DNA of 63,090 nt, the filler included. It is 5 parts of 5 records of this genome, joined end to end, with 100 filler letters (N's around TTAATTAATTAA, not from the genome) between each part and the next. Parts side by side here need not be neighbours in the genome. Positions count along the whole stretch, not along the records: positions 55,753 to 63,090 come from SRR31156797_10683; 4 more parts are not named here. One strand, given 5' to 3'. Within the stretch, counting starts at the first letter, position 1, and every line of letters starts with the position of its first letter. Shown here in pieces: positions 43,323 through 63,090 of this stretch. Made by a program: the position numbers and the translations under genes. A model generated the notes under the pieces. The model was not told where the DNA came from. It made no database searches and was given only the letters and a program-made list of their open reading frames with translations.

Positions 43323-43323
43323 C

Positions 43324-45993: not shown

Positions 45994-46020
45994 ATGTTGT
46001 AATTTATAATAAGTGAGTTT

Positions 46021-46052: not shown

Positions 46053-46106
46053 ATTTTAACATAAAATTGCGTAAATTGATGGGTATAAATTTCTAATCCC
46101 TTTTCT

Positions 46107-47645: not shown

Positions 47646-47763
47646 AAGAAGGTAAATTTCTAGATTAGAAAGAATCTAAAATAATCAGCCATTCAAAGCA
47701 GGTTATAGAACGATCTTGTATATTTTTGAACACTATTTAAACCAATTAACTTAGATATTAAGT

Positions 47764-48450
47764 ATGGCAGATGAGTTTACAACCAATAGTCTAATGGATC
47801 CTATTGGAAGATTAATGGGATTAAGATATAAATCACATCCGTGGCATGGTATTAATATAGGTGATGAGGCACCTGAGATTGTAACAACTTTTATAGAGGT
47901 GGTTCCCACAGATACGATTAAGTATGAAATTGATAAGTCGACTGGCTATTTAAAAATAGACAGACCGCAAAAGTATTCAAATGTCGTCCCGGCACTTTAT
48001 GGATTTATACCACAAACATATTGTGGTCCTAGAATTGGTAAGTTTTGCGCAGAAAAATCTGGAAGAGAATCAATCCAAGGAGATGGAGATCCGTTGGATA
48101 TTTGTGTGCTTACGGAAAAGGAAGTTCCACATGGTGATATTATTGCACATGCTCGTCCTATTGGTGGTTTTAGGATGATTGATGGTAATCAGGCAGATGA
48201 CAAGATTATTGCTGTTTTAAAGGGAGATATCGTATATGGCAATATGAAGGACATTGAAGAATTACCCGAGCTTGTTATTAATAGACTTAAGCACTATTTT
48301 TTGACTTATAAGGATATGCCGGGTTTAGATGCCGATTGTGAAATAACGCATATTTATAATTCAGTTGAAGCTAAAGAAATAATAAAGCTATCAGCTTTGG
48401 ATTATGATTCCCGTTTTGATAGTTTAAGAAATGCACTTTCAAATTATTAA
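47764..48450 (+). CDS. ppa: Soluble inorganic pyrophosphatase (family I)
   Basis: HPWHG, KYEIDK, YGFIPQT, DGDPLDI, DDKII. Confidence 0.93.
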   Translation: MADEFTTNSLMDPIGRLMGLRYKSHPWHGINIGDEAPEIVTTFIEVVPTDTIKYEIDKSTGYLKIDRPQKYSNVVPALYGFIPQTYCGPRIGKFCAEKSGRESIQGDGDPLDICVLTEKEVPHGDIIAHARPIGGFRMIDGNQADDKIIAVLKGDIVYGNMKDIEELPELVINRLKHYFLTYKDMPGLDADCEITHIYNSVEAKEIIKLSALDYDSRFDSLRNALSNY

Positions 48451-48461
48451 CCGAATTTTAG

Positions 48462-48495
48462 AACGTCTTTTACCAACTTGTAAAAGGCGTTTTTT
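48462..48495 (+). terminator. Intrinsic terminator
   Basis: AACGTCTTTTAC...GTAAAAGGCGTT followed by a T-run. Confidence 0.75.
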
Positions 48496-48583
48496 ATGCT
48501 CACCTTATTTTCTCGCTCTTTACTTTTTATTAATTATTCCTTATCTTTTATACAATTGAAAAATTGTAAATGGAGGAATTATT

Positions 48584-49057
48584 ATGCCACTATCTAAATT
48601 AGAATCCTACTTAAGGAATGAGGATGTATCCTTTAATAAGATTGTACATCATAAAACCTACACAGCACAGCGTACAGCAGCTGATACACATATTTCAGGC
48701 AAGGAAATCGCAAAAACGGTGATTATGAAAATTGATGGCCAGATGTGTATGGTTGTTTTACCTGGAGATATGCAGGTTGATTTTAATTTGTTAAAGGAAG
48801 CTACAGGAGCTAAGGATATACGTTTAGCTACAGAAATGGAGTTTAAAGATATATTTGAAAATTGTGAGGTTGGTGCTATGCCACCTTTTGGTAATCTGTA
48901 TAATATGCCTGTTTATGTTGCAGAAGCATTAAAAGAAGATGTTTTTATCGCTTTTAATGCAGGAACACATAGTATGCTAATCCAAATGAAGTATGCAGAT
49001 TTTGAAAGGTTAGTTCAGCCTACAATTATGAAGATTGCTCATCATGCGAATTGTTAA
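48584..49057 (+). CDS. YbaK/EbsC family aminoacyl-tRNA deacylase
   Basis: IAKTV, RLATE, CEVGAMPPFG, FNAGTH. Confidence 0.92.
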   Translation: MPLSKLESYLRNEDVSFNKIVHHKTYTAQRTAADTHISGKEIAKTVIMKIDGQMCMVVLPGDMQVDFNLLKEATGAKDIRLATEMEFKDIFENCEVGAMPPFGNLYNMPVYVAEALKEDVFIAFNAGTHSMLIQMKYADFERLVQPTIMKIAHHANC

Positions 49058-49156
49058 GTTTTAGGGTGGAAAGGATTTTTGACCTTTCTGTTAATTAAAA
49101 AATATGTTTCTGAATTATCTCGTTTAGAAATTTCTTTCCGGGTTTTAAATTAAAGT

Positions 49157-49194
49157 AAAAAAGCTGTTCCAACGTTTTGGTAACAGCTTTTTTT
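49157..49194. terminator. Bidirectional-type terminator
   Basis: AAAAAAGCTGTT...AACAGCTTTTTT. Confidence 0.75.
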
Positions 49195-49520
49195 GCACTA
49201 GCAAAATCGAAAAGGGTAAAAAAATAGTAGTTATTTTTTAAATCATTCTCACTTAAATCAAACGAAATCTTAGATGTATTTCATTTGTTTGTGATCAAAA
49301 TCAAATTTGTTTTTTGATTTCGATGTACAAATGAATAATAGTTTTGATAATACAGCAAATAAAAGGTATTATAAGACTTCCGAGGGGGTAAAAAACATTA
49401 TTTAGGGACGAAAATATAACATGTGGGATGTATTTTGTAAATTTTCATTCCTTTATAGTTGTATTATTTTTACTATTATTTTGTTTTTAAGAATTAATTT
49501 ATCACTACTTTCGTGTTTAA

Positions 49521-50378
49521 ATGGATTTGAATCAAAACATACCGGCATATTTAATTTCGAAACGGAACATTGTTAGATTAATCATCTTTACTGCGGGATT
49601 TGCATTACTCTTCATTAATCTATACTCGCCATTTGATGTGCGTAATTGGTTTGGTTTTGATTTAAAATCACAGGAGCTCTTGTTGTATTCTAGTCTGGTA
49701 ATATTAACTGGAGTGTTAGTTGCTGTAGTTTCAAGGGTTATTCTTTATCATTACAATAAAAAAGAGATAAGAACCAAAATATGGGCTTTCATCTGTATAA
49801 TAGGTTTGGAAGTTATATTTATGTCTTTGTTTTATACAATATACGAGTCGGTATTTATAAAAAATGATACGAGGAATTTTCTAGAAGTTTATAAGGCTTC
49901 GTTTCAAAATACTGCCTTGGTTCTTTTATTGCCATATGCCGTTATGTGGCTGTATTTTTCTTGGTTGGATAAGGCAAATAAAATAAAAGAGTTAACCGCT
50001 TCGGAAGACACAGTTCCTATTGATGGGAAAATGATGGTTCCATTTTTGGATGAAAAAGGAACTATGCGAATCACCTTAAAACTGGATGATATTTTGTATT
50101 TAAAAGGTGCTGATAATTATGTATCCATCTTCTATAGAAACAAAAATACTGTTTCCAAGTTCTTACTGCGCAATACTATTAAAAACCTTGAGGATCAAAT
50201 AAAAGAACTACCAATTACAAGGTGTCATCGTTCTTATATGGTTAATTTTGAAAAGATTAAGGTAATAAGGCGCGAAAAAGGTATTCATTTACTCGAAATG
50301 GATACAGACACGCCTATCGAAGTACCTTTGTCCAAAACATATATGAATAAAGTTTTTGAGGTCTTTGGAAAAATTTAG
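49521..50378 (+). CDS. Membrane-anchored LytTR family regulator
   Basis: Four TM segments, then ILYLKGADNYV...RCHRSYMVN...VPLSKTY. Confidence 0.88.
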   Translation: MDLNQNIPAYLISKRNIVRLIIFTAGFALLFINLYSPFDVRNWFGFDLKSQELLLYSSLVILTGVLVAVVSRVILYHYNKKEIRTKIWAFICIIGLEVIFMSLFYTIYESVFIKNDTRNFLEVYKASFQNTALVLLLPYAVMWLYFSWLDKANKIKELTASEDTVPIDGKMMVPFLDEKGTMRITLKLDDILYLKGADNYVSIFYRNKNTVSKFLLRNTIKNLEDQIKELPITRCHRSYMVNFEKIKVIRREKGIHLLEMDTDTPIEVPLSKTYMNKVFEVFGKI

Positions 50379-50812
50379 TTCTGAAGAGGAAGTATAAATA
50401 GGGTAAAAATCCAACAACCTACGCAAAAGTTTGCCACACATTCTAATCCTGCAAACAATATTAAAGCATAAGATAATGTTTCACTAACAATGGATAAACC
50501 TGTTAATTGAAATATAAATATTAGGAATGTAAAAATAAAACCTAATCTTGCTGCAAATATTTTAGGGGCTTTGTCGATAAGTTTGCCTTTTTTTCGAATG
50601 TTAGCAGAAATGAATCGCGATAGTTTTGCCACTGGACTATACTCGCCTTTTGTAAATCCTCTTAAAAAGAAATCAACTAATAAAAATGCAGGTATCAGTA
50701 TGTTATTTGTTAAAACATATAAAAATAGAAGGAATACAACTATTGATCCACTTATTCGTGGTAATAAATCAGATATTCTCTCTGAAGATAACGGACATAC
50801 AAGGTTTTTCAT
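50375..50812 (-). CDS. DUF4395 family membrane protein
   Basis: DFFLRGF, APKIFAARLG, LECVANFCVGC. Confidence 0.85.
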   Translation of the reverse strand: MKNLVCPLSSERISDLLPRISGSIVVFLLFLYVLTNNILIPAFLLVDFFLRGFTKGEYSPVAKLSRFISANIRKKGKLIDKAPKIFAARLGFIFTFLIFIFQLTGLSIVSETLSYALILFAGLECVANFCVGCWIFTLFILPLQN

Positions 50813-50942
50813 GCTTATTAATTTTGAAGTTGTAATAGTTAAACCTTTGTTCGATTAAAAGGTTTTTCTTTTAAAGCATATATATCCTATATTTTAAATA
50901 GGAAATAGGATTTTGTAGTAATAGGTTTATTTTAATTATCTA

Positions 50943-50979
50943 TATATTTGTGCAGAAATTAAGATTGCATAATTGCAGT
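50943..50979 (+). promoter_or_regulatory. Bacteroidota -7 element and a downstream palindromic operator candidate for the metal ABC operon
   Basis: TATATTTG (TAnnTTTG) at 50943-50950; ATTGCA-TAAT-TGCAGT at 50964-50979. Confidence 0.45.
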
Positions 50980-51052
50980 ATCACAGGTAAACAAACTTTA
51001 AATATCCTTGTTAGTAAGCTTTGGTTTATTAAAATAAAATACCTTAATAAAG

Positions 51053-51925
51053 ATGTTAGAAAAATGTAGATTTTGTGTATTGTTGGTTCTAATTGGAAGT
51101 TTATTTGCTTGTGTTGAGAATAAAACTGATAAACAGAATGTATCAGTAAGTATTTTACCGCAGAAATTTGTGATAGATTACCTGACAAATGAACAATTGC
51201 CAGTAAATGTTATGATACCGAAGGGTAGTAGTCCTGCTACTTATTCGCCAACTCCAAGGCAAATACAGCTATTAGAAAATTCGAGGGTTTATATTAAAAT
51301 TGGTCATATTGGATTTGAACAATCCTGGACTAATAGAATTATGGAAATTTTTCCGTCTATTCAGATATATGATTCTTCGCTCGGTATTGAATTAATATCA
51401 GAAGAAGATTTTCATCATGGAGATCATGTGCATAAGGGTGGAATAGATCCGCATATCTGGACATCCCCAAAAACAATGAAAACGGTGGTGGAAAACACAA
51501 AGGGTATTTTAATTAAAGAATTTCCTGAGTTAAAGGAGCAAATTGAGGAAAATGCATACAAACTGTCAAATGAAATTGCTAGGTTGGATAGTTTGTATTT
51601 TAATACTATGGCTAATCTAGAGCAAAAAATATTTTATATATATCATCCTGCATATACCTATCTGGCAAGAGATTACGGTATAGAACAGATTTCAATTGAA
51701 ACAGAAGGTAAGGAACCTAGTGTAAAATGGATTCAAAGTATTGTTGAAAAAGCGAAAGAAGAAAATATAAAAGCTATTTTTATACAAGAGGAATTTGATA
51801 GAAAAAATGCAGAGCTTATCGCAAAGGAGATTGATATAGATATTGTTCAGGTTAATCCTTTAGCTTATAATTGGCTTGAAGAGATGGAAGATACTCTAAA
51901 TAAATTTAAGGAAACGTTAAACTAA
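51053..51925 (+). CDS. Zn/Mn ABC transporter substrate-binding lipoprotein (ZnuA-like)
   Basis: Lipobox LFAC; His-rich loop; DPHIWTSP; HPAYTY. Confidence 0.9.
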   Translation: MLEKCRFCVLLVLIGSLFACVENKTDKQNVSVSILPQKFVIDYLTNEQLPVNVMIPKGSSPATYSPTPRQIQLLENSRVYIKIGHIGFEQSWTNRIMEIFPSIQIYDSSLGIELISEEDFHHGDHVHKGGIDPHIWTSPKTMKTVVENTKGILIKEFPELKEQIEENAYKLSNEIARLDSLYFNTMANLEQKIFYIYHPAYTYLARDYGIEQISIETEGKEPSVKWIQSIVEKAKEENIKAIFIQEEFDRKNAELIAKEIDIDIVQVNPLAYNWLEEMEDTLNKFKETLN

Positions 51926-52669
51926 ATGGAACCTTTAATTAGCCTACATAAAATTAATGCCGGTTATAATGGTAAAGCTGTATTAAAAAATATCAACTTG
52001 GATATTTACCCGAATGATTTTATTGGCATTATTGGACCAAACGGAGGAGGTAAATCTACCTTATTAAAGGTGATTCTTGGCGTTCTAAAACCGTTTTCTG
52101 GTAAAATAAGTTTTGAACAAAAAGGTATGCTTAGGCATATAGGTTATTTGCCACAAATGAATGATGTTGATAAAGCTTTTCCTATAAGAGTTTTAGATGT
52201 TGTATTATCCGGTTTGTTAGGAAAAAAAGGTTTAATTGCACGATATCATAGAAAGGATAAAGAAAAAGCCATTGAGCTCTTGGATTTTGTTGGGTTAAAA
52301 GATCTTCAAAACCGGGCGATTGGTCAGTTGTCTGGAGGGCAAATGCAAAGGGTGTATCTTTGTCGGGCTTTAATGAATGATCCTAAATTGTTGATTTTGG
52401 ATGAACCTAATAACTTTGTAGATAAGCATTTTGAATCGGAATTGTACGAGCTTTTAAATGAGTTAAATAAAAAAATGGCCATATTATTGGTTTCTCATGA
52501 TATTGGTACAATTTCCAGTTTTGTTAAGACCATTGCATGTGTGAATGAATATTTGCATTATCATCAATCCAATAAAATATCAGAAGAGATTTTAAAGACG
52601 TACAATTGCCCGATTGAATTAATAACGCATGGTCATGTACCACACAGGGTATTGCATAAGCATTCTTAA
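51926..52669 (+). CDS. Metal ABC transporter ATP-binding protein (ZnuC-like)
   Basis: GPNGGGKST, LSGGQ, LDEP, C-terminal His cluster. Confidence 0.92.
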   Translation: MEPLISLHKINAGYNGKAVLKNINLDIYPNDFIGIIGPNGGGKSTLLKVILGVLKPFSGKISFEQKGMLRHIGYLPQMNDVDKAFPIRVLDVVLSGLLGKKGLIARYHRKDKEKAIELLDFVGLKDLQNRAIGQLSGGQMQRVYLCRALMNDPKLLILDEPNNFVDKHFESELYELLNELNKKMAILLVSHDIGTISSFVKTIACVNEYLHYHQSNKISEEILKTYNCPIELITHGHVPHRVLHKHS

Positions 52670-52674
52670 TATAA

Positions 52675-53502
52675 ATGGAAGACTTTTTTAGCATATTTCA
52701 ATATTCATTTTTTACCAATGCACTGATTGCAGGTGTTCTGACAAGCATAGTTGCTGCCATAGCCGGTACATATATTGTATCCAGAAAAATTGTATTTATA
52801 AGCGGAGGAATAACACATACTTCGTTTGGAGGAATTGGATTAGCTTATTTTCTAGGTTTTAATCCTTTTCTAGGAGCTGCTGTTTTTGCTGTGTTATCTG
52901 CCGTAGGAATTGAGTGGAGTGCATCGAGAGGTAATGTAAGGGAAGATAGTGCAATAGCCATGTTGTGGTCATTAGGAATGGCTATCGGAATTATCTTTGT
53001 GTTTTTAACACCAGGTTATACACCAAATTTAATGAGTTTTTTATTTGGAAATATTCTGACAGTAACTAACTCTGATATAATTTACCTACTGATTTTGACC
53101 ATAATTGTTATAGGGTGTATTATATTATTTTATCGCCCTGTTTTGTATACTTCTTTTAATGAAGAGTATGCAAAAACAACAGGAATTAATACAAAAGTTG
53201 TAAAGTATATTACGGGTGTTTTGGTGGCGCTTTCTATTGTGTTGAGTATTAGAATTGCGGGTATAATTTTGGTATTGTCTCTTTTTACAATCCCGCAAGC
53301 TACATCATTTATTTTTACGCACGATTTTAAACGTATTATCTATAGTTCAGTAATATTTGGATTTGTGGGAGTGTTTACCGGATTATTGGGTTCGTATTAT
53401 TTTAATTTACCATCTGGAGCTGTAATTATTTTCTCTCACATAATAATATGGATCGTTGTAAAACTTATTTTCAAAGTAATTGCTGTTCTGAAAGTAAATT
53501 AA
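52675..53502 (+). CDS. Metal ABC transporter permease (ZnuB-like)
   Basis: GGITHTSFGG, FLFGNIL; many TM helices. Confidence 0.9.
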   Translation: MEDFFSIFQYSFFTNALIAGVLTSIVAAIAGTYIVSRKIVFISGGITHTSFGGIGLAYFLGFNPFLGAAVFAVLSAVGIEWSASRGNVREDSAIAMLWSLGMAIGIIFVFLTPGYTPNLMSFLFGNILTVTNSDIIYLLILTIIVIGCIILFYRPVLYTSFNEEYAKTTGINTKVVKYITGVLVALSIVLSIRIAGIILVLSLFTIPQATSFIFTHDFKRIIYSSVIFGFVGVFTGLLGSYYFNLPSGAVIIFSHIIIWIVVKLIFKVIAVLKVN

Positions 53503-54157
53503 ATAGTGTTTCTCCAATTGCTAAATCAATAGGCGTTGTTATTTTAATGTTTTCTCTGTTCCCTTCTGTTAGGGAAATTGCATTTCCTGCGTACTCAAAT
53601 ACACTCGCATCATCAGTAAAAATTTCCTGATATGGCTGTTTATATGCTTTCGCGATTTCTGTATATTGAAAAACCTGAGGAGTTTGTACCATTTTATACT
53701 GATCTCTCGGTACAGCTATACTTTGATTATTTTCTGTTTTACGAATTGATTCGATGGCATCGGTAACAGGAATAGCACTGCCTGTTCTTTCAGCTGTATT
53801 GAAGCAATTGTCTAAGGTTTGATTGGTAACCAGTGGCCTTACCCCATCGTGGATAGCAACAAGGCATTCTTCGTTAATTTTGTTAAGTCCGTTTTTTACG
53901 CTTTCGTAGCGAGTAGAACCTCCTTGTGCGATTTTTACATCGATGGAAAAATCATATTGATTACATAGTTCATTCCAAAATTGAAATTGAGATTCAGGTA
54001 AAACTAATACTATTGTTCCATTGGGATTATAGTTGTGTAATCTTTCAACAGTATGCATTAAAATAGGTTTTCCACACCATTCTATAAACTGTTTAGGGAT
54101 ATCACTTTGCATTCTGGATCCACTTCCCCCGGCAACAACTATAAAAGCTTTTTTCAT
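53471..54157 (-). CDS. ispD: 2-C-methyl-D-erythritol 4-phosphate cytidylyltransferase
   Basis: AGGSGSRM...PKQF, GGSTRYESV, IHDGVRP, QTPQ, TDD, NIKITT. Confidence 0.93.
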   Translation of the reverse strand: MKKAFIVVAGGSGSRMQSDIPKQFIEWCGKPILMHTVERLHNYNPNGTIVLVLPESQFQFWNELCNQYDFSIDVKIAQGGSTRYESVKNGLNKINEECLVAIHDGVRPLVTNQTLDNCFNTAERTGSAIPVTDAIESIRKTENNQSIAVPRDQYKMVQTPQVFQYTEIAKAYKQPYQEIFTDDASVFEYAGNAISLTEGNRENIKITTPIDLAIGETLFNLLSEQQLL

Positions 54158-54289
54158 TGAAATAAATTTTATTCAAAAGTAATAAATAACAGCAGAAAGA
54201 TTACTCAGATCTCAGCTCTATTCTTAACTTGTAATTATTAGTAAATCGTTTTAAATTGTATTTTTTATAACGTTTAATGAGTTTACATT

Positions 54290-54958
54290 ATGATACCTAA
54301 AGAGATATTTGATTTTTTAGTTGAGTTGAGTGTGAATAATAATAAAGATTGGTTTCATGAGAATAAATCGAAATTTGAGATTGCTAAACAATCATTCGAA
54401 AAGTATGTGGATGGGTTAATTGCAATAATTCATGGTATTGATCCGACTATTGGGCATCCGCATGCAAAAGATTGTATTTTTAGAATCTACAGAGATGTTC
54501 GTTTTTCGAAAAATAAGGAACCATATAAAAACAACTTTGGAGCTTATATAGCACATGGAGGAAGAAAGAGTCCATATGCTGGTTATTATCTTCATATAGA
54601 ACCAGACAATAGTTTTTTAGGAGGAGGAATTTATTGTCCTCAACCTAATGTTCTAAAAGGTGTAAGGGAAAATATTTTGGATAATGCCAATGAATATCTA
54701 TCAATCATTGATGACGAAAAGTTTAAAAAGGTCTTTCCTGAAATATGGGGAGATAAACTTAAAACTGCACCCAAAGGATTTTCAAAAGAAGATCCAAATA
54801 TTCATTTGATTAGAAATAAATCATTTGTGTTAATGCAAAACTTATCTGATAAAGAAATTCAGTCAAAGAATTTTGAAGAAAAGATGATACACGCTTTTGG
54901 TTTGATGAAGCCATTTAATGATTTTATAAATTTAGCAGTGAAACATGTGCTATCGTAA
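54290..54958 (+). CDS. DUF2461 family protein
   Basis: NNNKDWF, IFRIYRDVRFSKNKEPYK, LKTAPKGF. Confidence 0.9.
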   Translation: MIPKEIFDFLVELSVNNNKDWFHENKSKFEIAKQSFEKYVDGLIAIIHGIDPTIGHPHAKDCIFRIYRDVRFSKNKEPYKNNFGAYIAHGGRKSPYAGYYLHIEPDNSFLGGGIYCPQPNVLKGVRENILDNANEYLSIIDDEKFKKVFPEIWGDKLKTAPKGFSKEDPNIHLIRNKSFVLMQNLSDKEIQSKNFEEKMIHAFGLMKPFNDFINLAVKHVLS

Positions 54959-54971
54959 AAAAAGATCTGAA

Positions 54972-55652
54972 TTAAAAAGGAAAATCCTCTTTTAATGGTT
55001 TGTGAAGACTTTCTGATTCTTCAGGCTTGCTGGCCATAATATGTTGTGGATTGCCTTCAATGTAAATAGCTTTATGCGGGTACTCAACAGGGCAGGGGTG
55101 TTCGCATGCACCGCAGCCTATGCATATTTCTTGATTTACCTCTGGAATCACAAGTCCATTTTTATATGGAACCATTTGTACAGCTTTAGTTGGGCAATGT
55201 TCAGAACATGCTCCGCAATCTGTTTGTTCCCGGTAAACAACACAATCTTGTTGAACAAAGACCGCTTTTCCAATTTGGGTTAACTGTTTCTTCTCAATGT
55301 CTAAGGGAAGAATAGCTCCAGTTGGACAGATTTCACTGCATCGATTACAGTCGAAGTTACAGAAGCCAATATTTGCATAATCCATATGTGGTTGCATAAA
55401 TCCAATTATACCATATTCTTTAACCGCTGGCTGTAGTACGTTTGTCGGGCATGTTGAAATGCATAAGCCACATGCAGTGCAGATGCTGTTGAATCGACTA
55501 ATGTTCTCAGATCCTGGAGGTGAAATTGGGTTTTTACGAATGGATAATTTATAGTTAGAATTTGTATCTGTATTGAAAATCGTGTCTGATTGTGCTAATA
55601 TGGTTGAGCTTGCCGTAATTGTTACTAACCCGAGTTCGATTCTAAAAAAGAG
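54972..55652 (-). CDS. 4Fe-4S dicluster (MauM/NapF-type) ferredoxin protein, 5'-truncated at the contig end
   Basis: Frame is open to the linker: PISPPGS...CTACGLCISTCP...CNFDCNRCSEICP...CGACSEHCP...CIGCGACEHPCP. Confidence 0.88.
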   Translation of the reverse strand, partial: LFFRIELGLVTITASSTILAQSDTIFNTDTNSNYKLSIRKNPISPPGSENISRFNSICTACGLCISTCPTNVLQPAVKEYGIIGFMQPHMDYANIGFCNFDCNRCSEICPTGAILPLDIEKKQLTQIGKAVFVQQDCVVYREQTDCGACSEHCPTKAVQMVPYKNGLVIPEVNQEICIGCGACEHPCPVEYPHKAIYIEGNPQHIMASKPEESESLHKPLKEDFPF

Positions 55653-55752
55653 NNNNNNNNNNNNNNNNNNNNNNNNNNNNNNNNNNNNNNNNNNNNTTAA
55701 TTAATTAANNNNNNNNNNNNNNNNNNNNNNNNNNNNNNNNNNNNNNNNNNNN
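55653..55752. other. Artificial contig linker
   Basis: N44-TTAATTAATTAA-N44. Confidence 0.98.
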
Positions 55753-55782
55753 TGATTTTCTATGTGCGAAAGTTGAGTTATT

Positions 55783-56736
55783 ATGTTAAACAGACCATCC
55801 GCAATAAAAAGAAAATTTCTTAATTATCTTCAATCCTTTATAGTGATCTTTGGAACAGCAATTTTAATTGCTATTGCCGCAGCTTTAATTTATGGGAGTA
55901 TGGGTGTTATTTTAGCTTTAACATTGTGGTTTTTATTGATCATTTTGATTCCAATAGTTAATCCTAGGTCTGTACTTAAAATATATAAAGCAAAAAAGCT
56001 TAGTTATGACCAAGTACCAGCTTTATATGAGATGATCTATTCCTTATCTAAAAAAGCAAAACTTGAATACCCTCCAAAACTCTTTTATATTCAAAGTGAT
56101 TCATCATTAGCATTTTCTACAGGGACAAAAGGTGATAGTGTGATCGCTTTATCTGATGCTCTTTTTAAAATATTAAATAAAGAGGAGATCTATGGAGTAT
56201 TAGCTCATGAGATAAGTCATATTAAAAATAATGATATATGGTTGATGCAGATCACAGATACAGCAAGTAAAGTGGCAAGTTTAGTAGCCTATACTGGACA
56301 AATATTATTACTTTTATTGGTACCATTTATTGATATTTTTAATCTATCTTTTTGGGTCACACTTTTAGTTTTTGTACTTATCCCTCCTTTTTCTATTTTG
56401 ATGCAGTTATCCCTTTCAAGAATAAGAGAGTATGGAGCAGATTTGGACTCAGCGATATTAACACAAAATCCAAGGTTTTTAATATCGGCTCTTAAAAAGC
56501 TTGATTATATAGAAGAGAATATTTTCAATCAACTTTTTAACCCTTTTTCAAAATCATCTGAGCCCTCCATTTTGCGAACACATCCATCAACAAAAAAAAG
56601 GATACAAAGGTTAGAAGAACTAAGCTCTTTAGAATATCCTCTTGATAACTTATACAATAAAGAGAATTTGTTTTTTAAAGAGATACCAATGCAAAGTAGA
56701 ACCCCTAAAAGGAGATACTTTCATTGGTATTATTAA
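55783..56736 (+). CDS. HtpX-like M48 zinc metalloprotease
   Basis: GVLAHEISH, SRIREYGAD, LRTHP; TM helices. Confidence 0.9.
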   Translation: MLNRPSAIKRKFLNYLQSFIVIFGTAILIAIAAALIYGSMGVILALTLWFLLIILIPIVNPRSVLKIYKAKKLSYDQVPALYEMIYSLSKKAKLEYPPKLFYIQSDSSLAFSTGTKGDSVIALSDALFKILNKEEIYGVLAHEISHIKNNDIWLMQITDTASKVASLVAYTGQILLLLLVPFIDIFNLSFWVTLLVFVLIPPFSILMQLSLSRIREYGADLDSAILTQNPRFLISALKKLDYIEENIFNQLFNPFSKSSEPSILRTHPSTKKRIQRLEELSSLEYPLDNLYNKENLFFKEIPMQSRTPKRRYFHWYY

Positions 56737-57601
56737 GAGTTTTCTTTTTTTGATCAAGGTATTTATTATATTGACTCATAGAGATTAATAAAAACCCAAT
56801 AGCTAGTAAAAGATATACAGCATATAAAATATCTTTATAATCACTAATTGCTATTTTAAATACCATCATTAAAGCCTCAATAGCTAAAGCTATAATAATA
56901 GATATCATAAATTTAATCAAAAGGTTACTACCCCCATGAGCTTCACTACTATGCTCTTTAAAAATCACTTCATGCTCTAAAAGATTTTTTGCAAGATCAA
57001 AGATCGCAAGACCAAGGGTAAGAGCAATGGTTGACTTGAAGATTGAATGAAATATATTGGATGATTCGATAAATAATATATTCCAAAAGTCGTAGATTGC
57101 ATAAAAAACTAAGATGAGTGCAAACAGAGTAAGACTTATCCCAATGATCCCATAAATAACTTGAACACTTTGGATAAAGAGTTTTGTTTTAAAGCTAGTA
57201 TGTTCAAACTCATTGAGTAGTTTAAAAAGGTCAAAATCTAAAGCGATCAAACGATCATCGATCTTTTTAACAAAGGTGATGATATATTTATTGGTTTTTT
57301 GTGAGATATAAGGACTACTGATAAAATACTCTTTATTCTCTATATTAATGTTATTTTTTAGTTTTCTTTTTATCTTATCATCAATTAATTCTCCATTTTT
57401 CATATCACGATTAAAAATAGGGGAGAGTTGAAGATAGTTTTTATCAACTGCATAGATGGTTTCTAAAGCATGAAAATGAGTAAAGACTTCATCTAAGTTT
57501 TCACTTTTTATATGTTTAAGTTTATTGTTGTGTAGTTTTTCTAAAAGTTTATTGACTATATCTGTTTTATTTTGTTGAAAAATATTGATCAACTCTTTCA
57601 A
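56705..57601 (-). CDS. PDC/Cache sensor domain plus 4-TM protein (Campylobacterota PglG-like)
   Basis: YFISSPYIS, TLGLAIFDLAK, IIIALAIEALMMVFK; TTG start with GGAGG SD. Confidence 0.7.
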   Translation of the reverse strand: MKELINIFQQNKTDIVNKLLEKLHNNKLKHIKSENLDEVFTHFHALETIYAVDKNYLQLSPIFNRDMKNGELIDDKIKRKLKNNINIENKEYFISSPYISQKTNKYIITFVKKIDDRLIALDFDLFKLLNEFEHTSFKTKLFIQSVQVIYGIIGISLTLFALILVFYAIYDFWNILFIESSNIFHSIFKSTIALTLGLAIFDLAKNLLEHEVIFKEHSSEAHGGSNLLIKFMISIIIALAIEALMMVFKIAISDYKDILYAVYLLLAIGFLLISMSQYNKYLDQKKKTLNNTNESISF

Positions 57602-57644
57602 TGAATATCCTCCAAACTAAAATGTAAATATTTTAATATTAAGT

Positions 57645-57666
57645 GAAAAGGAGGGGAGACCCTCCT
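57645..57666 (-). terminator. Hairpin, probable terminator of a short minus-strand transcript
   Basis: Minus strand AGGAGGG-TCTC-CCCTCCT-TTTC. Confidence 0.55.
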
Positions 57667-57853
57667 AATATCTAAAAGAGAACTCAAAGTGAGTGCTAAA
57701 AAGTTTAATCTCTTTTAGAAAATTGAAAAAATTTTGTAGAAAGATGTTTTATAACATTGCCCTCCTTATATTGTTAATATAAAAAGTCACTTTAGTTTTT
57801 TATACTAAAGTTATTGAAATTATAAAGCAAAAAATTAAAAATACTTTTAAAAA

Positions 57854-57880
57854 TTAGCACTAATATCTATAGAGTGCTAA
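57854..57880. promoter_or_regulatory. CIRCE element (HrcA operator)
   Basis: TTAGCACTA-ATATCTATA-GAGTGCTAA versus consensus TTAGCACTC-N9-GAGTGCTAA (one mismatch). Confidence 0.8.
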
Positions 57881-57891
57881 TTTATAAAGAT

Positions 57892-57966
57892 AAAAAAAGG
57901 TCTCACAAAAACTTGTGAGACCTTTGAAACTTAACTTTTGAAAGAAACACACCTAACGTTTCCATC
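57892..57966 (-). ncRNA. Candidate ~75-nt small RNA
   Basis: TATAAT at 57978-57973 with T-rich upstream sequence; 13-bp stem AAAGGTCTCACAA/TTGTGAGACCTTT and U-run. Confidence 0.5.
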
Positions 57967-58042
57967 AGATTAATTATAAAATAAAAAAGATAAAATAAAA
58001 GTAAAATTTTTTGAATACTTTGAATTTGTGAGACTATAGTAA

Positions 58043-58073
58043 TATCCCTCTTTAATAAGGGATAGATTATAAT
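58043..58073 (+). promoter_or_regulatory. Promoter -10 with an upstream palindrome
   Basis: TATCCCT-N8-AGGGATA (58043-58064), then TATAAT at 58068-58073; SD AAGGA before the ATG at 58098. Confidence 0.5.
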
Positions 58074-58097
58074 TGGTATTGAAATAAGGAAACGTAG

Positions 58098-58529
58098 ATG
58101 TTTGAAAAGTTTTTTAGAAGCAAAAAAGAGAAAAAAGAGATAGAGTTAAAAACCTTGGCTTTTTTTCAGTTCTCAAAATCTATTGGAGCGATAAAAACCC
58201 AAAAAGTAGAGCAGATAAGCATAGCTGAACTATTGCTACAAGGGTTTATATTTTTAGAAACGGAGCGAGTTGTAAGTCATAAAGATGAGAAAAAATTTCT
58301 TATTTTTATGGATCAGTATAATCGTTTTTTAGAGTATTGTTTGGGAAAAAAACTTGTAAAAAAAGATGAATACCAAAAGATAGAAAAACTCAACTTAATC
58401 AAAGTACCTGATATGTCTCATATAAAAGTGCCAGATATCTCTAAAGAACTTAAAGAGATGGATATCGATCTTGATCAATTATCACAAATCTTTTCACATA
58501 TGGATCTTAGTAAAACAAATGGCAAATAA
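58098..58529 (+). CDS. Hypothetical protein
   Basis: SD AAGGA; 143 aa; internal repeat IKVPDMSH/IKVPDISK. Confidence 0.65.
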   Translation: MFEKFFRSKKEKKEIELKTLAFFQFSKSIGAIKTQKVEQISIAELLLQGFIFLETERVVSHKDEKKFLIFMDQYNRFLEYCLGKKLVKKDEYQKIEKLNLIKVPDMSHIKVPDISKELKEMDIDLDQLSQIFSHMDLSKTNGK

Positions 58530-59235
58530 GATTTATCCTTTAAGTCATGAGAATATCTTAGATCACAACTTTATGGAAAGTTTTATCTATCCAAATAAGG
58601 AACTTCACTATTATTTTAGTGAAAGTTTTGATGAGAAATTTTATATAGATCTCGCATTAAAAGGTTTTATCTCTATATGGTATCAAGAGGGTGAAAAAGA
58701 GTATTTACTCCCTGAGATACAATTTGAGTATGCTATTTTAGATTTTGAGAATCTTCATATCTCTAAAAAAGTAAAAAAGCTTTTAAAACAAACAGATTAT
58801 CAGGTATTTGTTGATACTAACTTTGATGAGGTGATAGAGTTTTTAAAAATATATCATGACTCTTCTTGGATCCAAGGGGAATATATAGAACTTTTAAAAA
58901 GATTACAATCTACACACTATAAAAAAGAGCTTTTTTCACTCAAAGTTTTTGGGATAAAAGATATGTCGAGCAATAAAATAATTGCAGCAGAACTTGGATA
59001 TAGTACTTATGGGGATAAAATATATACTAGTTTAAGTGGGTTTAGTTTAAAAGAGAAACAATATAATAACTATGGAACACTTCAAATGGTATTATTAGCA
59101 CAATATTTAGAGCAAAATAAGTATCAATTTTGGAATTTAGGACACCCATATATGGAGTATAAAATAGGTTTAGGTGCAGTAGTTGTCTCAAGAGAAGAGT
59201 TTTTACAGCGTTTAAAAACTACTTATAAAATTTAA
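58519..59235 (+). CDS. Leucyl/phenylalanyl-tRNA-protein transferase-like (GNAT-fold) protein
   Basis: LHISKKVKK, FDEVI, SWI, IAAELGY, YTSLSGF, GTLQM, YKIGLGA; probable start MANKIYP overlapping the upstream stop. Confidence 0.7.
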   Translation: MANKIYPLSHENILDHNFMESFIYPNKELHYYFSESFDEKFYIDLALKGFISIWYQEGEKEYLLPEIQFEYAILDFENLHISKKVKKLLKQTDYQVFVDTNFDEVIEFLKIYHDSSWIQGEYIELLKRLQSTHYKKELFSLKVFGIKDMSSNKIIAAELGYSTYGDKIYTSLSGFSLKEKQYNNYGTLQMVLLAQYLEQNKYQFWNLGHPYMEYKIGLGAVVVSREEFLQRLKTTYKI

Positions 59236-59306
59236 GTTTAGTTTGATTGATATAATAGTAAATAAATAGTAAAATAAAATTAACTTACAATCCAAAAGGA
59301 TAAAAA

Positions 59307-60224
59307 ATGATAAATATTCTACTTGTTGATGATATGGATGGAAACCTTACTATTTTAGAGTATCTGATTGCTGAATATATGAAAAGTAGAAATATTGAAA
59401 ACTATCATATCGCAGCTCACACTGACCCAGCAAAAGCTTTACAACTTGTTCAAAACAGCAAAATTGATATTATTTTTTTAGATGTGATGATGCCTTATAT
59501 GAATGGATTTGAATTTTTACAAATTGTAAGAAATGATCCAACAGCAAATCAACCTATCGTGGTGATGGTTACTGCTTTACAAGGAAAGAAATCAAAAGAG
59601 AAAAATCAAGCATTTGGTGCAAATGCCTATATAATTAAACCTATAAAAGCTGAGATTGTGAGTATGATGTTGGATCGATATATAGAGATATTAAAAAGAA
59701 ATGAATTTAATGTGCATGAAACTTTTGAGTTTCAACAAAATGTTGAAAAAAAAGAGACACAAGAAGATGAAGAGAATGATGAAGAAATCGATAGTCAAAA
59801 GTTTTATGAAAAATGTAATGAAGAAGATATAGAAGATACTTTAGAAGATATAAATAATACTATATTTAGGGTTTTTGATTGCGCAGATGAATCTTTATCT
59901 AAAGTAAATATTGATCTAGTCCAAGAGATGAACAATATTATCTTGATCTTCAAAGCATATCAAAATCTTTTTGCAAATTTTGAGGAGTTAGAAGATATCC
60001 GCTTTTTAATTGGAAACTTTAAACTATTGTTTGAAAAATACAATATTGAGTGTGTTGATACACAAAGTCAAGAAAAGATTACTATCTTGCTAAAATCAAT
60101 GATCATTGCACTTTTAAAATACAAACAAAAAGTTTTTATTGACCAAACAGAAGAAAATATTGGATATATAAAAATAGAACTAGAGAATAAACATAAACAA
60201 ATAGATCAAATATTAGCAGCTTAA
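59307..60224 (+). CDS. Response regulator receiver protein with an uncharacterised C-terminal helical domain
   Basis: ILLVDD, FLDVMMP, VTA, YIIKPI; SD AAGGA. Confidence 0.85.
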   Translation: MINILLVDDMDGNLTILEYLIAEYMKSRNIENYHIAAHTDPAKALQLVQNSKIDIIFLDVMMPYMNGFEFLQIVRNDPTANQPIVVMVTALQGKKSKEKNQAFGANAYIIKPIKAEIVSMMLDRYIEILKRNEFNVHETFEFQQNVEKKETQEDEENDEEIDSQKFYEKCNEEDIEDTLEDINNTIFRVFDCADESLSKVNIDLVQEMNNIILIFKAYQNLFANFEELEDIRFLIGNFKLLFEKYNIECVDTQSQEKITILLKSMIIALLKYKQKVFIDQTEENIGYIKIELENKHKQIDQILAA

Positions 60225-60259
60225 TTTATATGGGTGTAATCTAGATAAGGTTACAATAG

Positions 60260-60745
60260 GTGATGATAACTAAAGAAACACTAGATCAATTAATCATCAA
60301 AGATGAAATCATTCAATATACTACTTCATATGTATTATATTATCAGATTGCATTAGGAAGAAATGTATATGAAACTTTCCATGATGAAGATCTCGCTAGA
60401 GCAAAACTACTAGAGTTAAATTTAACTCTTGAACCTACTGAAGTAATCTCAAAGGTTTTAGAGACTGCTTTTGAAAACCTAGGTTATGATAATTTAGATA
60501 CTCCTTTAAAACAAAAAGCACTATTACATTCACTAGAAGACTTTACAACACATGATGATAGCTTGATTAATAAACAAAACTACATTGAATTAAAAAAGAA
60601 ACTTATTTTAGAAGAGAATTTTTTTGATAGTGGAATGAAGATGCAATTTTTGCAAGAGTATCCTAAAATGTTCTCACACTATTCTAAACTAATCACTGAT
60701 GAATATATCAAGCAACTTAAACAAATAATCTTAGATAATTTTTAA
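60260..60745 (+). CDS. Hypothetical protein
   Basis: 161 aa ORF filling the gap between plus-strand genes. Confidence 0.65.
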   Translation: MMITKETLDQLIIKDEIIQYTTSYVLYYQIALGRNVYETFHDEDLARAKLLELNLTLEPTEVISKVLETAFENLGYDNLDTPLKQKALLHSLEDFTTHDDSLINKQNYIELKKKLILEENFFDSGMKMQFLQEYPKMFSHYSKLITDEYIKQLKQIILDNF

Positions 60746-60839
60746 TATTTTCCAAAGGGAAAAAGAGTAAAACTTATATATCTAAATATAAAATTTACTT
60801 TCTAGAGTAAAAAGTATTTTATTTCAAAAGAGGTCTATT

Positions 60840-62204
60840 ATGAACTTTAGAGAGGAACAAGATAGCTTTGGAACAATAAATATAAGTAAAGATATGCTTT
60901 GGGGAGCACAAACACAAAGAAGTCTTCAAAACTTTTCTATAGGAATTGAAAAGATCCCTATGGAATTGATATATGCATATGCTACTATTAAAAAAAGTGC
61001 AGCTATTGTTAATAATGAGTTTCAAAAGTTGAGTAATGAAAAGACAAACTTGATCGTACAGGTTTGTGATGAGATCAGAGATAAAAAACTTGATCAACAC
61101 TTTCCTTTATATGTTTGGCAAACAGGTAGTGGAACCCATACTAATATGAATCTAAATGAAGTGATTTCAAATAGAGCTAGACAACTTAATCCAAATATTA
61201 GCATCCATCCAAATGATGAGGTGAATATGGGACAAAGTTCTAATGATACTTTTCCTACTGCTATGAAAATAGCGTCGTGTTTAAAACTTTCTCAAATATT
61301 GATTCCTACTTTATATAGATTACAAGAGACCTTAGAGCTTAAACAAAAAGAGTTTCAGGGGATCATAAAAGTAGGACGAACCCATCTTCAAGATGCTACA
61401 CCTTTATATTTAAGTGATGAAATAGGGGGATATAAAGGGATGATTGAGCATTCTATCTCTTCTATACAAAAAGCACTAGAAAATTTAAAAGAGCTTCCTC
61501 TAGGTGGAACAGCCGTAGGTTCAGGGATCAATACAGAAAAAGAGTTTGGTGCAAAAGTGGTTGAAAATTTAAATCAAGAGCTAGATTTTGATTTTGTTGA
61601 ACTTCAAAATAAATTTTATGGTTTAACGTCCCATGATAGTGAAGTATTTTTAAGTGGGGCTTTGAGTGCTTTAGCATCAAATCTATTAAAGATGATAAAT
61701 GATATCAGATTATTAGGAAGTGGTCCAATGTGTGGATTGGGAGAGTTTATTCTTCCAACAAATGAGCCAGGAAGCTCTATTATGCCAGGAAAAGTGAACC
61801 CTACACAAATTGAAGCATTAAGTATGATCTGTCTTCAAGTATTAGGAAATCATACAACGATCTCAATGGCTGCAAGCCAAGGAAATTTTGAACTTAATGT
61901 ATATAAACCAGTGATCATTTATAATCTTCTTCAATCGATCACATTATTGGCTGAGGGAATAGATTCTTTTACAAAAAGAACTTTACAAGGGCTAGGGGCT
62001 AATAGAAATGTGATTGAAAATAACTTACAAAAAAATCTTATGCTTGTAACAAACCTTAATCCTATAATAGGGTATGATAATGCTACTAAAATTGCAAAAT
62101 ATGCATTAAAAAACAATAGTACATTAAGAGAATCAGCAATTAAATTAGAGATTTTATCTGGAGAGGATTTTGATAAATATATGTGTATCGATAGTATGAT
62201 TTGA
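60840..62204 (+). CDS. fumC: Class II fumarate hydratase
   Basis: WGAQTQRS, WQTGSGT, QSSNDTFPTAM, GRTHLQDATP, GSSIMPGKVNP. Confidence 0.96.
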   Translation: MNFREEQDSFGTINISKDMLWGAQTQRSLQNFSIGIEKIPMELIYAYATIKKSAAIVNNEFQKLSNEKTNLIVQVCDEIRDKKLDQHFPLYVWQTGSGTHTNMNLNEVISNRARQLNPNISIHPNDEVNMGQSSNDTFPTAMKIASCLKLSQILIPTLYRLQETLELKQKEFQGIIKVGRTHLQDATPLYLSDEIGGYKGMIEHSISSIQKALENLKELPLGGTAVGSGINTEKEFGAKVVENLNQELDFDFVELQNKFYGLTSHDSEVFLSGALSALASNLLKMINDIRLLGSGPMCGLGEFILPTNEPGSSIMPGKVNPTQIEALSMICLQVLGNHTTISMAASQGNFELNVYKPVIIYNLLQSITLLAEGIDSFTKRTLQGLGANRNVIENNLQKNLMLVTNLNPIIGYDNATKIAKYALKNNSTLRESAIKLEILSGEDFDKYMCIDSMI

Positions 62205-62307
62205 ATTTTTAAAGATTAAAACTGTTCCTCCTTAAGTTTATAACAACTAGTACCGAATCACTCTGGTTTTTACTCTGTCCTTGGACACTGACTTCCATTT
62301 ATATCCT

Positions 62308-62433
62308 TTAAAATACATTAATTAAAGAGGCTACAAGTGCAAAAGAGGCTACGATTATTGCAGACTCTACTAATATGATTATATTGTAGTCTTTTTTATT
62401 TTGTTTATATTGATCTATGATTTTATTTTTCAT
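62308..62433 (-). CDS. 41-aa small membrane peptide (type I toxin-like candidate)
   Basis: My translation MKNKIIDQYKQNKKDYNIIILVESAIIVASFALVASLINVF*; SD TAAGGAG 5 nt before the ATG; not in the ORF track. Confidence 0.6.
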   Translation of the reverse strand: MKNKIIDQYKQNKKDYNIIILVESAIIVASFALVASLINVF

Positions 62434-62540
62434 TTTAACTCCTTAAATAGATTAAGGAGGAACAATTTCAGGAGTATAGTATCAAAGATTATTTAATTTT
62501 GTAATATATTCCATATTCAAATAATTTTTTTAAAAGTTTT

Positions 62541-63089
62541 TTAAGAGTGACCTTTGAGCTGTCTTTCTATTTTTCTTCTCTCAACCCCTTTATAATTTGG
62601 ATCAATTAGTTGTTTTCTAATCTTAATATCATGTTTCCCCTCAAAGTTTTTTCCACAAGCATCATTTACAATCTTTTGTGCAATATCACTTGCTTGTTGA
62701 GCGATAATATTGGTCTCTTGGGCTATTTGCGCATTTTTATTAGTCGCTTCATCAATATGGGTGATAGCTGAATTTATCTGTGAAACTTTTTGTTGTTGGA
62801 TACTTGTATCATGTGATACAGATTCGATCAATTCAGTTGTAGAACTGATACTATTATTTAAAGTTTCGTACCCTTTGATCATCTGGGTTGCTATTTGATT
62901 TCCTTGATGTGCATGGGCTGTGGCATTTTCTACTAAGGTTTTTATTTCATTGGCTGCTTCTGCAGATCTACTTGCTAGGTTTCTAACTTCCTGTGCAACT
63001 ACTGCAAACCCTTTCCCTGCTTCTCCTGCAGTTGCCGCTTCCACTGCTGCATTAAGTGATAGGATATTTGTTTGGAATGCAATTTGATC
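62541..63089 (-). CDS. Methyl-accepting chemotaxis protein, C-terminal part (runs off the window)
   Basis: [44 protein letters not shown]. Confidence 0.95.
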
Positions 63090-63090
63090 A

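Follow-up and report, generated by a model that had tools for sequence, protein, structure and literature searches.

What is encoded in the 336-bp gap that separates a convergent fumarase gene from the 3′ end of a chemoreceptor gene in a stretch of 63,090 bases of DNA? This stretch, the whole of which was analysed, is referred to here as the window, and the gap holds on its minus strand a promoter-like box, a leader that can fold onto a Shine–Dalgarno (SD) sequence, a first open reading frame (ORF1) for a peptide of 41 residues and a second open reading frame (ORF2), at the end of which stands a sequence complementary to the very start of the unit. An earlier account of this DNA, made from a single sequence and called here the sequence-only reading, took the unit for a candidate type I toxin–antitoxin-like locus of the hok or AapA kind. 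In this study, we revisited the locus in the light of its relatives. The best reading of the data is that the gap carries a member of a new family of small membrane peptides, encoded on a portable two-ORF module with a covarying switch of the toehold type, which is a variant of the way in which small toxins are controlled by the fold of their RNA. Stated as a mechanism, we give about even weight to the proposal that this is a conserved, relocatable two-cistron module in which translation of the membrane peptide is under a three-part RNA switch.

Elements of the locus

The TATACT box, the hairpin, the SD sequence, ORF1, ORF2 and the 13-nt complement described in the sequence-only reading are all present on the minus strand, each at the coordinates given there. 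The elements of the module are as follows.

62473–62478, minus strand: −10-like box TATACT, recognized from sequence; predicted transcript start at about 62466–62468.
62452–62468, minus strand: 5′ arm, AAAUUGUUCCUCCUUAA, made up of the anti-SD core CCUCCUU and a 5′ extension; defined by sequence, fold and covariation.
62439–62459, minus strand: local hairpin of CUCCUUAA (62459–62452), the loop UCUAU and UUAAGGAG (62446–62439), in which the anti-SD masks the first SD (SD1).
62444–62439, minus strand: SD1, AAGGAG, within the 3′ strand of the hairpin.
62308–62433, minus strand: ORF1, 41 amino acids, stop codon included in the coordinates; defined by sequence and selection.
62304–62308, minus strand: second SD (SD2), AAGGA, overlapping the ORF1 stop codon; recognized from sequence, in a block conserved in alignments A2 and A6.
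62209–62298, minus strand: ORF2, an open frame of 29 codons plus stop, which starts 9 nt past the ORF1 stop codon and covers the 3′ arm.
62219–62235, minus strand: 3′ arm, UUAAGGAGGAACAGUUU, made up of an SD-like decoy and a toehold complement; partner of the 5′ arm, with 6 nt left between its end and the ORF2 stop codon.

The extension of the 5′ arm is single-stranded in the hairpin state, which makes it a candidate toehold. Between the two arms, positions 62464–62452 and 62235–62223 form a perfect 13-nt complement, and in RNA this helix grows to 17 pairs (62468–62452 with 62235–62219), one of which is a U-G pair. When up to one mismatch is allowed, the 13-mer is found at just these two sites in the 63,090 bases of the window; the chance expectation is 0.16, and two or more matches were obtained in 2 of 100 shuffles. 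The 5′–3′ helix is closed in both the minimum free energy (MFE) structure and the centroid structure of the window RNA.

Copies of the module and their distribution

The full module was found in 14 copies, namely in the window, in one metagenome contig (L102) and in 12 genomes of a single Campylobacterota family, that of genome G313. These represent about ten lineages, the close kin being the window and L106, L111 and L113, and the trio L112, L115 and L116. Matches to a profile of the ORF1 peptide are present in 30 of the 184 genomes of this family, with one or two matches per genome and 32 in total, and 25 of these were examined as loci. Twelve have the full architecture, five a local variant of it, two stand behind an Hsp20-type gene, five stand behind a gene for a Cys-rich protein, and one (L117) is unclear and left unclassified, its start codon being not assignable. 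Two weak profile matches (G480 and G415) were obtained in a sample of Campylobacterota genomes, while plasmid and phage collections, searched at the DNA level in a distant mode, yielded no match to the module.

The metagenome copy L102 was detected by scanning metagenomes with a longer degenerate back-translated pattern; an earlier metagenome scan with the peptide alignment A1 had given 584 pattern matches, none of which was confirmed by tblastn. Its similarity to the window is confined to window positions 62284–62467 (78.5% identity), and its neighbours are a histidine kinase gene, an ORF of 73 residues and a lytic transglycosylase gene. L102 has a TATAAT box six bases ahead of the same 5′ sequence, it retains ORF1 and it retains the anti-SD/SD hairpin with an altered inner stem. 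Its ORF2 is similar at the start and then divergent, and its 3′ arm forms a helix of 14 bp with the 5′ end. None of 200 shuffles of L102 folds as well as the real sequence (z = −4.46).

In all 14 copies, a TAnnnT box precedes the 5′ arm and has its end 3–10 nt ahead of the arm's first paired base; with this spacing, the RNA would begin with the 5′ arm. Apart from a PsiE-like gene that is described below, the neighbours by lineage include a Na/Ca exchanger gene, NifQ, a cation ATPase, histidine kinases, a succinate dehydrogenase-type Fe-S subunit and LysR. Since the neighbours change between lineages, the module would be a relocatable unit that can also occur by itself, which is the case in the window. 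In none of the stand-alone copies (window/L106, L102, L107, L109, L114 and L120) is either ORF, either arm or the −10 box damaged. The module is autonomous and resembles a transcription unit, in support of the sequence-only reading.

Conservation and covariation of the pairing arms

The relatives retain both ORF1 and the pairing, and the two pairings proposed from the single sequence, the anti-SD hairpin and the 5′–3′ helix, were found in every one of the 14 copies. When the leaders are folded singly, the anti-SD/SD1 hairpin has an energy of −6.5 to −10.2 kcal/mol (the MFE of the window leader is −9.5) and leaves the 5′-most 3–10 nt unpaired. The long-range duplex between the 5′ and 3′ arms consists, per locus, of 11–21 pairs with an energy of −13.3 to −24.6 kcal/mol. 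The 3′ arm is always situated within ORF2, with its end −1 to 13 nt before the ORF2 stop codon.

It is the long-range helix that covaries. Its pairs were counted on an unguided MAFFT alignment (A6), columns 15–26 against columns 295–306. Here 88.2% of 152 cells pair, as compared with 78.3 ± 1.7% in column shuffles, of which none in 500 came up to the observed figure, and when the register is slid by 1–3 columns 42–61% are paired. Changes on both sides have occurred in 8 of the 12 helix pairs (reached by 8 of 500 shuffles) and in 19 helix cells (0 of 500), and the covariation score of the helix is 0.372 against 0.223 in shuffles (0 of 500). The contigs of near-identical strains contribute no covariation. 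Furthermore, 14 helix cells hold G-U pairs, which are mismatches in DNA or on the opposite strand. The toehold part differs wholly by lineage (UUGUU, UUUUACUU, AUGAC or UAUAGAC) and is matched each time by the 3′ arm, and SD variants (AAGGGG or AAGGGA) come with corresponding changes in both the anti-SD and the 3′ arm.

A perfect 13-bp inverted repeat around about 215 bp of DNA, present in unrelated neighbourhoods, could also be the mark of a miniature inverted-repeat transposable element (MITE) with 13-bp terminal inverted repeats, an alternative already named in the sequence-only reading, or it could be an inverted repeat that arose by chance. However, no further copies are present in the window or in G001, a genome that matches another part of the window, and a search with the module DNA gave one full-length copy each in G659, G648 and G665. 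One or two peptide matches were found in each of the 30 genomes, and the DNA search of plasmids and phages was without a match. In addition, the changes in the arms are compensatory and include G-U pairs, which is sensible only in sense-strand RNA, the conserved homology extends to the −10 box outside the repeat, an ORF under purifying selection lies inside it and, by eye, no direct repeat flanks the arms. The MITE is thus refuted by its copy number of one per genome together with covariation of the RNA type, and we regard an explanation of this sort, chance included, as wholly improbable.

The ORF1 peptide and its family

The ORF1 peptide has a length of 34–41 residues in the 14 copies and of 24–47 residues among its relatives overall. 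The N-terminal half is polar and conserved (MKNKIIxxYKxNK(K/R)DYxII). The C-terminal half is hydrophobic, with 24 residues that are, judged from the sequence, mostly hydrophobic and an invariant Glu23 at its start. The ratio of non-synonymous to synonymous substitution rates (dN/dS) of ORF1 is between 0.065 and 0.19 in the five pairs that were comparable; the pair L110–L109 was dropped, as these peptides differ by internal offsets. Between the window and L102, both of which are stand-alone copies, dN is 0.151 and dS is 1.809. ORF1 is thus a real gene under purifying selection, which supports the 41-residue frame proposed in the sequence-only reading. It probably encodes a tail-anchored membrane peptide.

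In a large protein collection, four close homologues of the peptide were found by BLASTP (83–93% identity, 35–41 residues), and a profile search added five more distant ones of 34–47 residues; a further profile match, P0010, a protein of 592 residues with 10 short stretches, was left out. In line with the sequence-only reading, in which the peptide was not recognised as AapA, Hok, Ldr or Fst, no match to a Pfam, NCBIfam or PADLOC family was obtained; in the ESM Atlas, the best score was 0.84, which is below the level that counts, and no family was returned. A scan of window positions 61900–62800 against Rfam with E-values up to 10 gave two matches at chance level (E = 2.4 and 8.6), far below gathering scores. 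The annotation of small membrane peptides, and of the RNA elements by which they are controlled, is very poor, and this is a peptide family without an entry in Pfam, NCBIfam, PADLOC or Rfam.

Some members of the family have a different leader. The local-variant subgroup (L118, L122, L123, L124 and L127) encodes peptides of 24–31 residues that begin with MKNINTNKKDY or MKDY. In these five loci, the leaders of about 50 nt contain a decoy UAGGAGAA (AGGAGA), a loop, an anti-SD UUCUCCUA (UCUCCU) and, 5–8 nt further on, the true SD AAGGAGAA, and each leader has two alternative hairpins of similar energy. As the same three elements are present in this subgroup, competition between the SD and a decoy for one anti-SD appears to be a theme of the peptide family, and the logic proposed below for the switch gains independent support from it.

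Other relatives are found behind protein-coding genes. Two distant relatives of 35–36 residues, L108 (G313, positions 1501–1611) and L119 (G695), start a few bases past the stop codon of a gene for a protein of 140 residues, which by eye is an Hsp20-type small heat-shock protein, and both are without the leader switch. This adjacency hints at a link to membrane stress. A further branch of the peptide with 36–38 residues (...KKDLAILVSFE...), found in L125, L126, L128, L129 and L130, is encoded directly after a gene whose product has a Cys-rich tail (...CAACDDISNCFxCSLNQ).

ORF2, a frame that is kept open

The second SD-led frame, which had likewise been pointed out from the window alone, is open for 26–37 codons in all 14 copies. 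It starts 2–12 nt past the ORF1 stop codon in 13 of them and overlaps this stop codon in the remaining one (L121), and in most copies it has an SD of its own. Over the span of ORF2, the other two frames contain 1–7 stops. The openness of the frame has a P of 0.027–0.109 in shuffles made locus by locus and the product over ten lineages is 6e−13, a figure for which independence is only approximate. The ORF2 peptide, on the other hand, is not conserved between lineages, and dN/dS is about 0.9–3.5 in two close pairs. Because the frame is kept open yet its peptide is unconserved, ORF2 appears to matter as a stretch that is translated and not for its product. A frame that is kept open while its peptide is free to drift can be the sign of a regulatory 'ribosome track'.

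At the nucleotide level, the junction between ORF1 and ORF2 (window 62291–62310; columns ~176–210 of A6; UAAAGGAU..AUGGA(A/C)GUCAGUGUC) is conserved above the rest of ORF2. It could be a coupling site or a further pairing partner.

Predicted folding and a model for the switch

The accessibility of SD1 was predicted by partition-function folding of the 14 copies. In the nascent leader, SD1 has an unpaired probability of 0.00–0.36, and in an RNA that ends at the ORF1 stop codon this value is 0.00–0.54. In an RNA that runs to the ORF2 stop codon and therefore includes the 3′ arm it is 0.32–0.89, and it is raised in each of the 14 copies. The sequence-only reading had proposed a logic of the hok/AapA type, in which the opposite would be expected; folding of 3′-truncated and full-length RNAs predicts the reverse polarity in all 14 copies, and this part of the proposal is not supported.

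We suggest that the switch operates in the following way. In the nascent RNA, the 5′-terminal anti-SD would fold onto SD1, leaving ORF1 silent during transcription. The 3′ arm would be made about 225 nt later. As it consists of a copy of the SD and of the complement of the unpaired 5′ extension, the whole would have the layout of toehold-mediated strand displacement. By way of the toehold, the 3′ arm would invade the hairpin and form a helix of 11–21 pairs with the 5′ end, by which SD1 would be freed and ORF1 translated. Ribosomes on ORF2 would then traverse the 3′ arm and melt the long helix, upon which the anti-SD would mask SD1 again. If ribosomes on ORF2 do re-lock SD1, the output would be self-limiting, and RNAs without the 3′ arm would be silent. 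At loci in which a PsiE-like gene is coupled to the module, this gene would be read via ORF2 through an overlapping AUGA and would thus be gated by the same switch. On this model, the module would be a natural and testable intramolecular strand-displacement switch, in which the position of the activating strand in a translated frame ties initiation to the completeness of the mRNA and to ongoing translation. The 14 natural variants, with their differing toeholds and SD/anti-SD cores, amount to a ready series of compensatory mutants.

A more far-reaching version, to which we can give only tentative credence, is that of a self-contained circuit that works without an antisense RNA and governs a membrane-active peptide. 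The anti-SD would serve as the antidote, the 3′ arm would arm the complete mRNA and ORF2 would reset it, so that the peptide would be produced in single-ribosome pulses from a portable cassette that either stands alone or gates another gene. If true, such a circuit would amount to a toehold switch of natural origin that is reset by ribosomes, and it might represent a novel form of restraint on a type I-like toxin.

Several points weigh against the proposed switch. The fold of the window copy, taken alone, is only mildly unusual (MFE −47.5 kcal/mol, z = −1.92; 5 of 200 shuffles fold as well), and it is because the pairing is conserved with covariation in 13 further copies that the finding exceeds chance. 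The shuffle controls for the helix in turn overstate its significance, because the 14 copies are related; the control with slid registers is unaffected by this. Covariation of the local hairpin is weak on A6, with 81.0% of cells paired compared with 78.6% in shuffles, 42 of 500 of which were as high as the real alignment. Furthermore, the window copy is predicted to open just partly (0.49), and in its MFE structure SD1 pairs anew with the CUCUUUA tract inside ORF1. This re-pairing had been foreseen from the window alone and is seen there, but it does not hold as a conserved feature, since L102 is without the tract and has its SD unpaired in the MFE structure. The masking in the nascent RNA and the release by the 3′ arm draw on the conserved anatomy and on equilibrium folding, and the direction of the switch is a thermodynamic prediction with guessed 5′ ends. 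A scan with consensus promoters and terminators missed the TATACT box and found no terminator-like site past the 3′ arm. Finally, we infer the start, the end and the very existence of the transcript, and the reset by ribosomes is deduced from the geometry of the RNA.

Pairing of the two ends could serve another end, namely the stability of the RNA. The 5′–3′ helix might be mainly an element that guards both ends of a short mRNA, the 5′ end from decay that depends on it and the 3′ end from exonucleases, with no switching of translation. In all copies, the helix indeed begins a few bases from the predicted 5′ end, and there is no terminator-like hairpin at the 3′ end of the window unit. However, the core of the helix always consists of an anti-SD and an SD copy, which is needless for protection and is required for competition with SD1. 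The 3′ arm is in addition always within ORF2, and in 7 of the 14 copies a longer mRNA would continue beyond it. The local-variant subgroup, moreover, has the logic of three elements without any end-to-end pairing. We therefore consider a role of the helix in stability alone to be improbable.

A PsiE-like gene downstream of the module

In 7 of the 14 copies, the next gene encodes a PsiE-like membrane protein of about 135–142 residues and lies within about 30 nt of the 3′ arm. The ORF2 stop codon overlaps the start codon of this gene (AUGA) in five of these seven, and with such an overlap the PsiE-like gene would be read by translational coupling. The matches to PF06146 (19.4 and 20.1 bits; E about 1e−3) fall short of the gathering threshold of 23.9, and the name is therefore used only in the form 'PsiE-like'. 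A complex prediction for the ORF1 peptide and the PsiE-like protein encoded at L111, in which alignments were not used, scored 0.00 and speaks neither for nor against an interaction. The PsiE-like gene also bears on the 3′ arm, which the sequence-only reading had placed at the 3′ end. The arm is no free 3′ end: it lies inside the translated ORF2, and at the seven loci with a PsiE-like gene the mRNA has to run on into that gene.

In five of these loci (L111–L113, L115 and L116; about 2110–3100 in the orientation of the module), the PsiE-like gene is followed after 2–6 nt by the start of a gene of the endonuclease/exonuclease/phosphatase family. In the same five loci, a gene of the Na/Ca-exchanger family is located upstream of the module. 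The cluster around the PsiE-like gene may be a small membrane or phosphate-related operon.

Could the module then be a translational leader cassette for the PsiE-like gene, of which the window copy would be an orphan, possibly decaying, after loss or rearrangement of that gene? The frequent adjacency of the two and the stop–start overlap with ORF2 would be consistent with this idea. So would the situation in G659, the genome closest to the contig of the window, in which the PsiE-like gene is on another contig, one that begins 9 bases before the match. However, the stand-alone copies are intact and lie in unrelated neighbourhoods, ORF1 is under purifying selection between the window and L102, both of them stand-alone, and in G648 and G576 the PsiE-like gene has a promoter region of its own and no module ahead of it. 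We regard a leader cassette of this kind, with an orphan copy in the window, as rather unlikely.

Comparison with known systems

The nearest published mechanism to the proposed switch is that of timP, published in 2026. The timP mRNA encodes a toxic small membrane protein and has its SD locked in a stem-loop; translation needs a competing long-range interaction that draws one strand of the stem-loop away, in a purely structural switch without RNase processing, and elements that are transcribed early have been proposed to lock the nascent RNA in an inactive state (PMC13000454). The likeness of the module to timP/TimR of enterobacteria is thus that a long-range pairing competes with the SD stem-loop without processing, here in silico only. 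In timP, all of the sites are in the 5′ untranslated region together with a pseudoknot, whereas in the module the activating strand is about 225 nt downstream, at the end of the translated ORF2, and pairs with the extreme 5′ end. timP also has an antitoxin, the small RNA TimR, for which no counterpart is known here. As the TimP peptide and the ORF1 peptide are unrelated in any search run in this study, the likeness is one of mechanism and not of family membership.

The aapA1/IsoA1 and aapA3/IsoA3 systems of Helicobacter pylori come from the same phylum and share with the module a short, stand-alone transcript for a small peptide, short hairpins at the SD that have been proposed to act co-transcriptionally and a 3′ end that decides on translatability. 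For AapA1, it has been described that the full-length fold impedes translation, that processing of the 3′ end activates the mRNA and that an antisense RNA handles the active form (PMC5416894), and for AapA3 that short SD-sequestering hairpins act during transcription (PMC6733600). In AapA1, it is accordingly the loss of the 3′ end that activates, while folding of all 14 copies predicts a 3′ arm that switches translation on and without which the mRNA is silent. The AapA systems have an antisense RNA on the opposite strand, for which no counterpart is known here, and are without an equivalent of ORF2, which is present here. The ORF1 peptide (41 residues, with a polar N-terminus and a C-terminal helix) was compared with curated family models, among which it has no match.

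In hok/Sok of plasmid R1, too, the two extremities of the toxin mRNA pair with each other, and the 5′ element has alternative pairings. This 5′–3′ pairing keeps the hok mRNA inert until its 3′ end is trimmed, and translation of hok depends on mok, an overlapping upstream frame. The polarity predicted for the module is the opposite one, and its extra frame is ORF2, which lies downstream, over the 3′ arm, where mok lies upstream. For the antisense RNA Sok, no counterpart is known here. The comparison with AapA and hok that had been drawn for the window therefore holds for the list of parts and not for the logic, because the 3′ element is predicted to be activating, is in a translated frame and is internal in half of the copies.

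A ribosome that crosses one strand of a helix and thereby alters access to a distant ribosome binding site (RBS) also has a likeness in the RNA phage MS2. In this case, the 'Min Jou' long-distance interaction couples translation of the replicase to translation of the coat gene, such that passage of ribosomes opens a distant start. The coupling in MS2 is positive, whereas negative feedback by way of the freed anti-SD is predicted here, and the module is bacterial and chromosomal. Among synthetic devices, toehold and 'anti-anti-RBS' riboregulators have been described in which a longer strand docks on a toehold and removes the mask of the RBS (PMC9071393, PMC10132225). These are engineered and act mostly in trans, while in the module a natural mRNA supplies its own invading strand, from within a translated frame. 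Full-text literature searches on 'anti-anti-SD' variants and on type I toxin–antitoxin systems of Arcobacter brought up no account of a switch or locus of this kind.

These comparisons bear on the question of whether the locus is a type I toxin–antitoxin system, with ORF1 as the gene of a membrane toxin, an mRNA restrained by its fold and an antisense RNA, encoded in cis or elsewhere, that would neutralise the translatable form. ORF1 is small, hydrophobic and shorter than 60 residues, its SD is predicted to be masked co-transcriptionally in two independent designs, and the unit stands alone in intergenic DNA. In addition, the distribution is patchy (30 of 184 genomes) with unrelated neighbourhoods, and the host phylum is the one known for AapA/IsoA, as described in PMC5416894 and PMC6733600. 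In 7 of the 14 copies, the strand opposite to ORF1 has −10-like hexamers across the conserved DYNII codons; however, no antisense box is common to more than 7 of the 14, and AT-rich codons yield −10-like words on both strands. A further antisense −10-like box at the ORF1 stop codon of the window and L102 is not kept in the other copies. The predicted polarity is opposite both to that described for AapA1 (PMC5416894) and to that of hok, and each genome has only one or two peptide matches, with one full DNA copy in each of the three genomes searched. Relatives of the peptide occur in operons, behind the Hsp20-type gene, behind the Cys-rich gene or before the PsiE-like gene, and the most conserved part of the peptide is its polar N-terminus, not the hydrophobic helix. 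On balance, a toxin–antitoxin system seems to us an unlikely identity for this locus. What stands of the original proposal are its parts, a peptide of the membrane type, a masked SD and a 5′–3′ pairing, and what does not is the label type I toxin–antitoxin, which is not established: the locus resembles the control of small toxins, and a toxin–antitoxin pair is unproven.

Setting of the locus in the window

At least five contigs are strung together in the window, with joints (44 N, TTAATTAATTAA and 44 N) at 5965–6064, 16055–16154, 42966–43065 and 55653–55752. The piece that bears the module is the last one (55753–63090), which corresponds to a single contig of 7338 nt in the probable source run and has a G+C content of about 29%, as compared with about 36% elsewhere in the window. 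Its closest relative is contig C152 of G659 (locus L106), which is 97.3% identical to window positions 61945–63090, and G659 is a member of the family of G313 in the phylum Campylobacterota. As far as its sequence tells, the host of the last contig is a low-GC member of the Campylobacterota. In the preceding contig, window positions 43100–55624 match G001, a genome of 5.7 Mb from a different family, at 98% identity. DNA matches to the last contig, the module and its fumarase gene are all absent from G001, and 133 genomes of the family of G001 are without a real homologue of the peptide, the two weak matches obtained lying inside frames of 214 and 137 residues. Since the last contig and the one preceding it come from different organisms, the assembly of the window would be mixed or contaminated.

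The two genes that flank the module, both of them outside it, are as follows.

60840–62204, plus strand: class II fumarate hydratase gene, the convergent neighbour.
62541–63089, minus strand: 3′ part of a methyl-accepting chemotaxis protein gene, the upstream neighbour, cut at the end of the contig and of the window.

The best relatives of the fumarase are 49–56% identical among the matches listed, and in 401 Campylobacterota genomes the identity is at most 58%. The similarity of L106 and of a marine-sediment metagenome contig to the window ends at 61945, within the fumarase gene (L106 1–514), and both have only the last 89 fumarase codons with unrelated sequence ahead of them. This break would reflect either a rearrangement beside the module in those strains or a chimeric assembly. 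On the same contig of the window, in the region of 58471–59235 and 59307–60224, there are an ORF with a weak likeness to leucyl/phenylalanyl-tRNA-protein transferase (33.8 bits against a cut-off of 143.55) and a response regulator that has no recognised output domain and carries a long acidic C-terminal extension.

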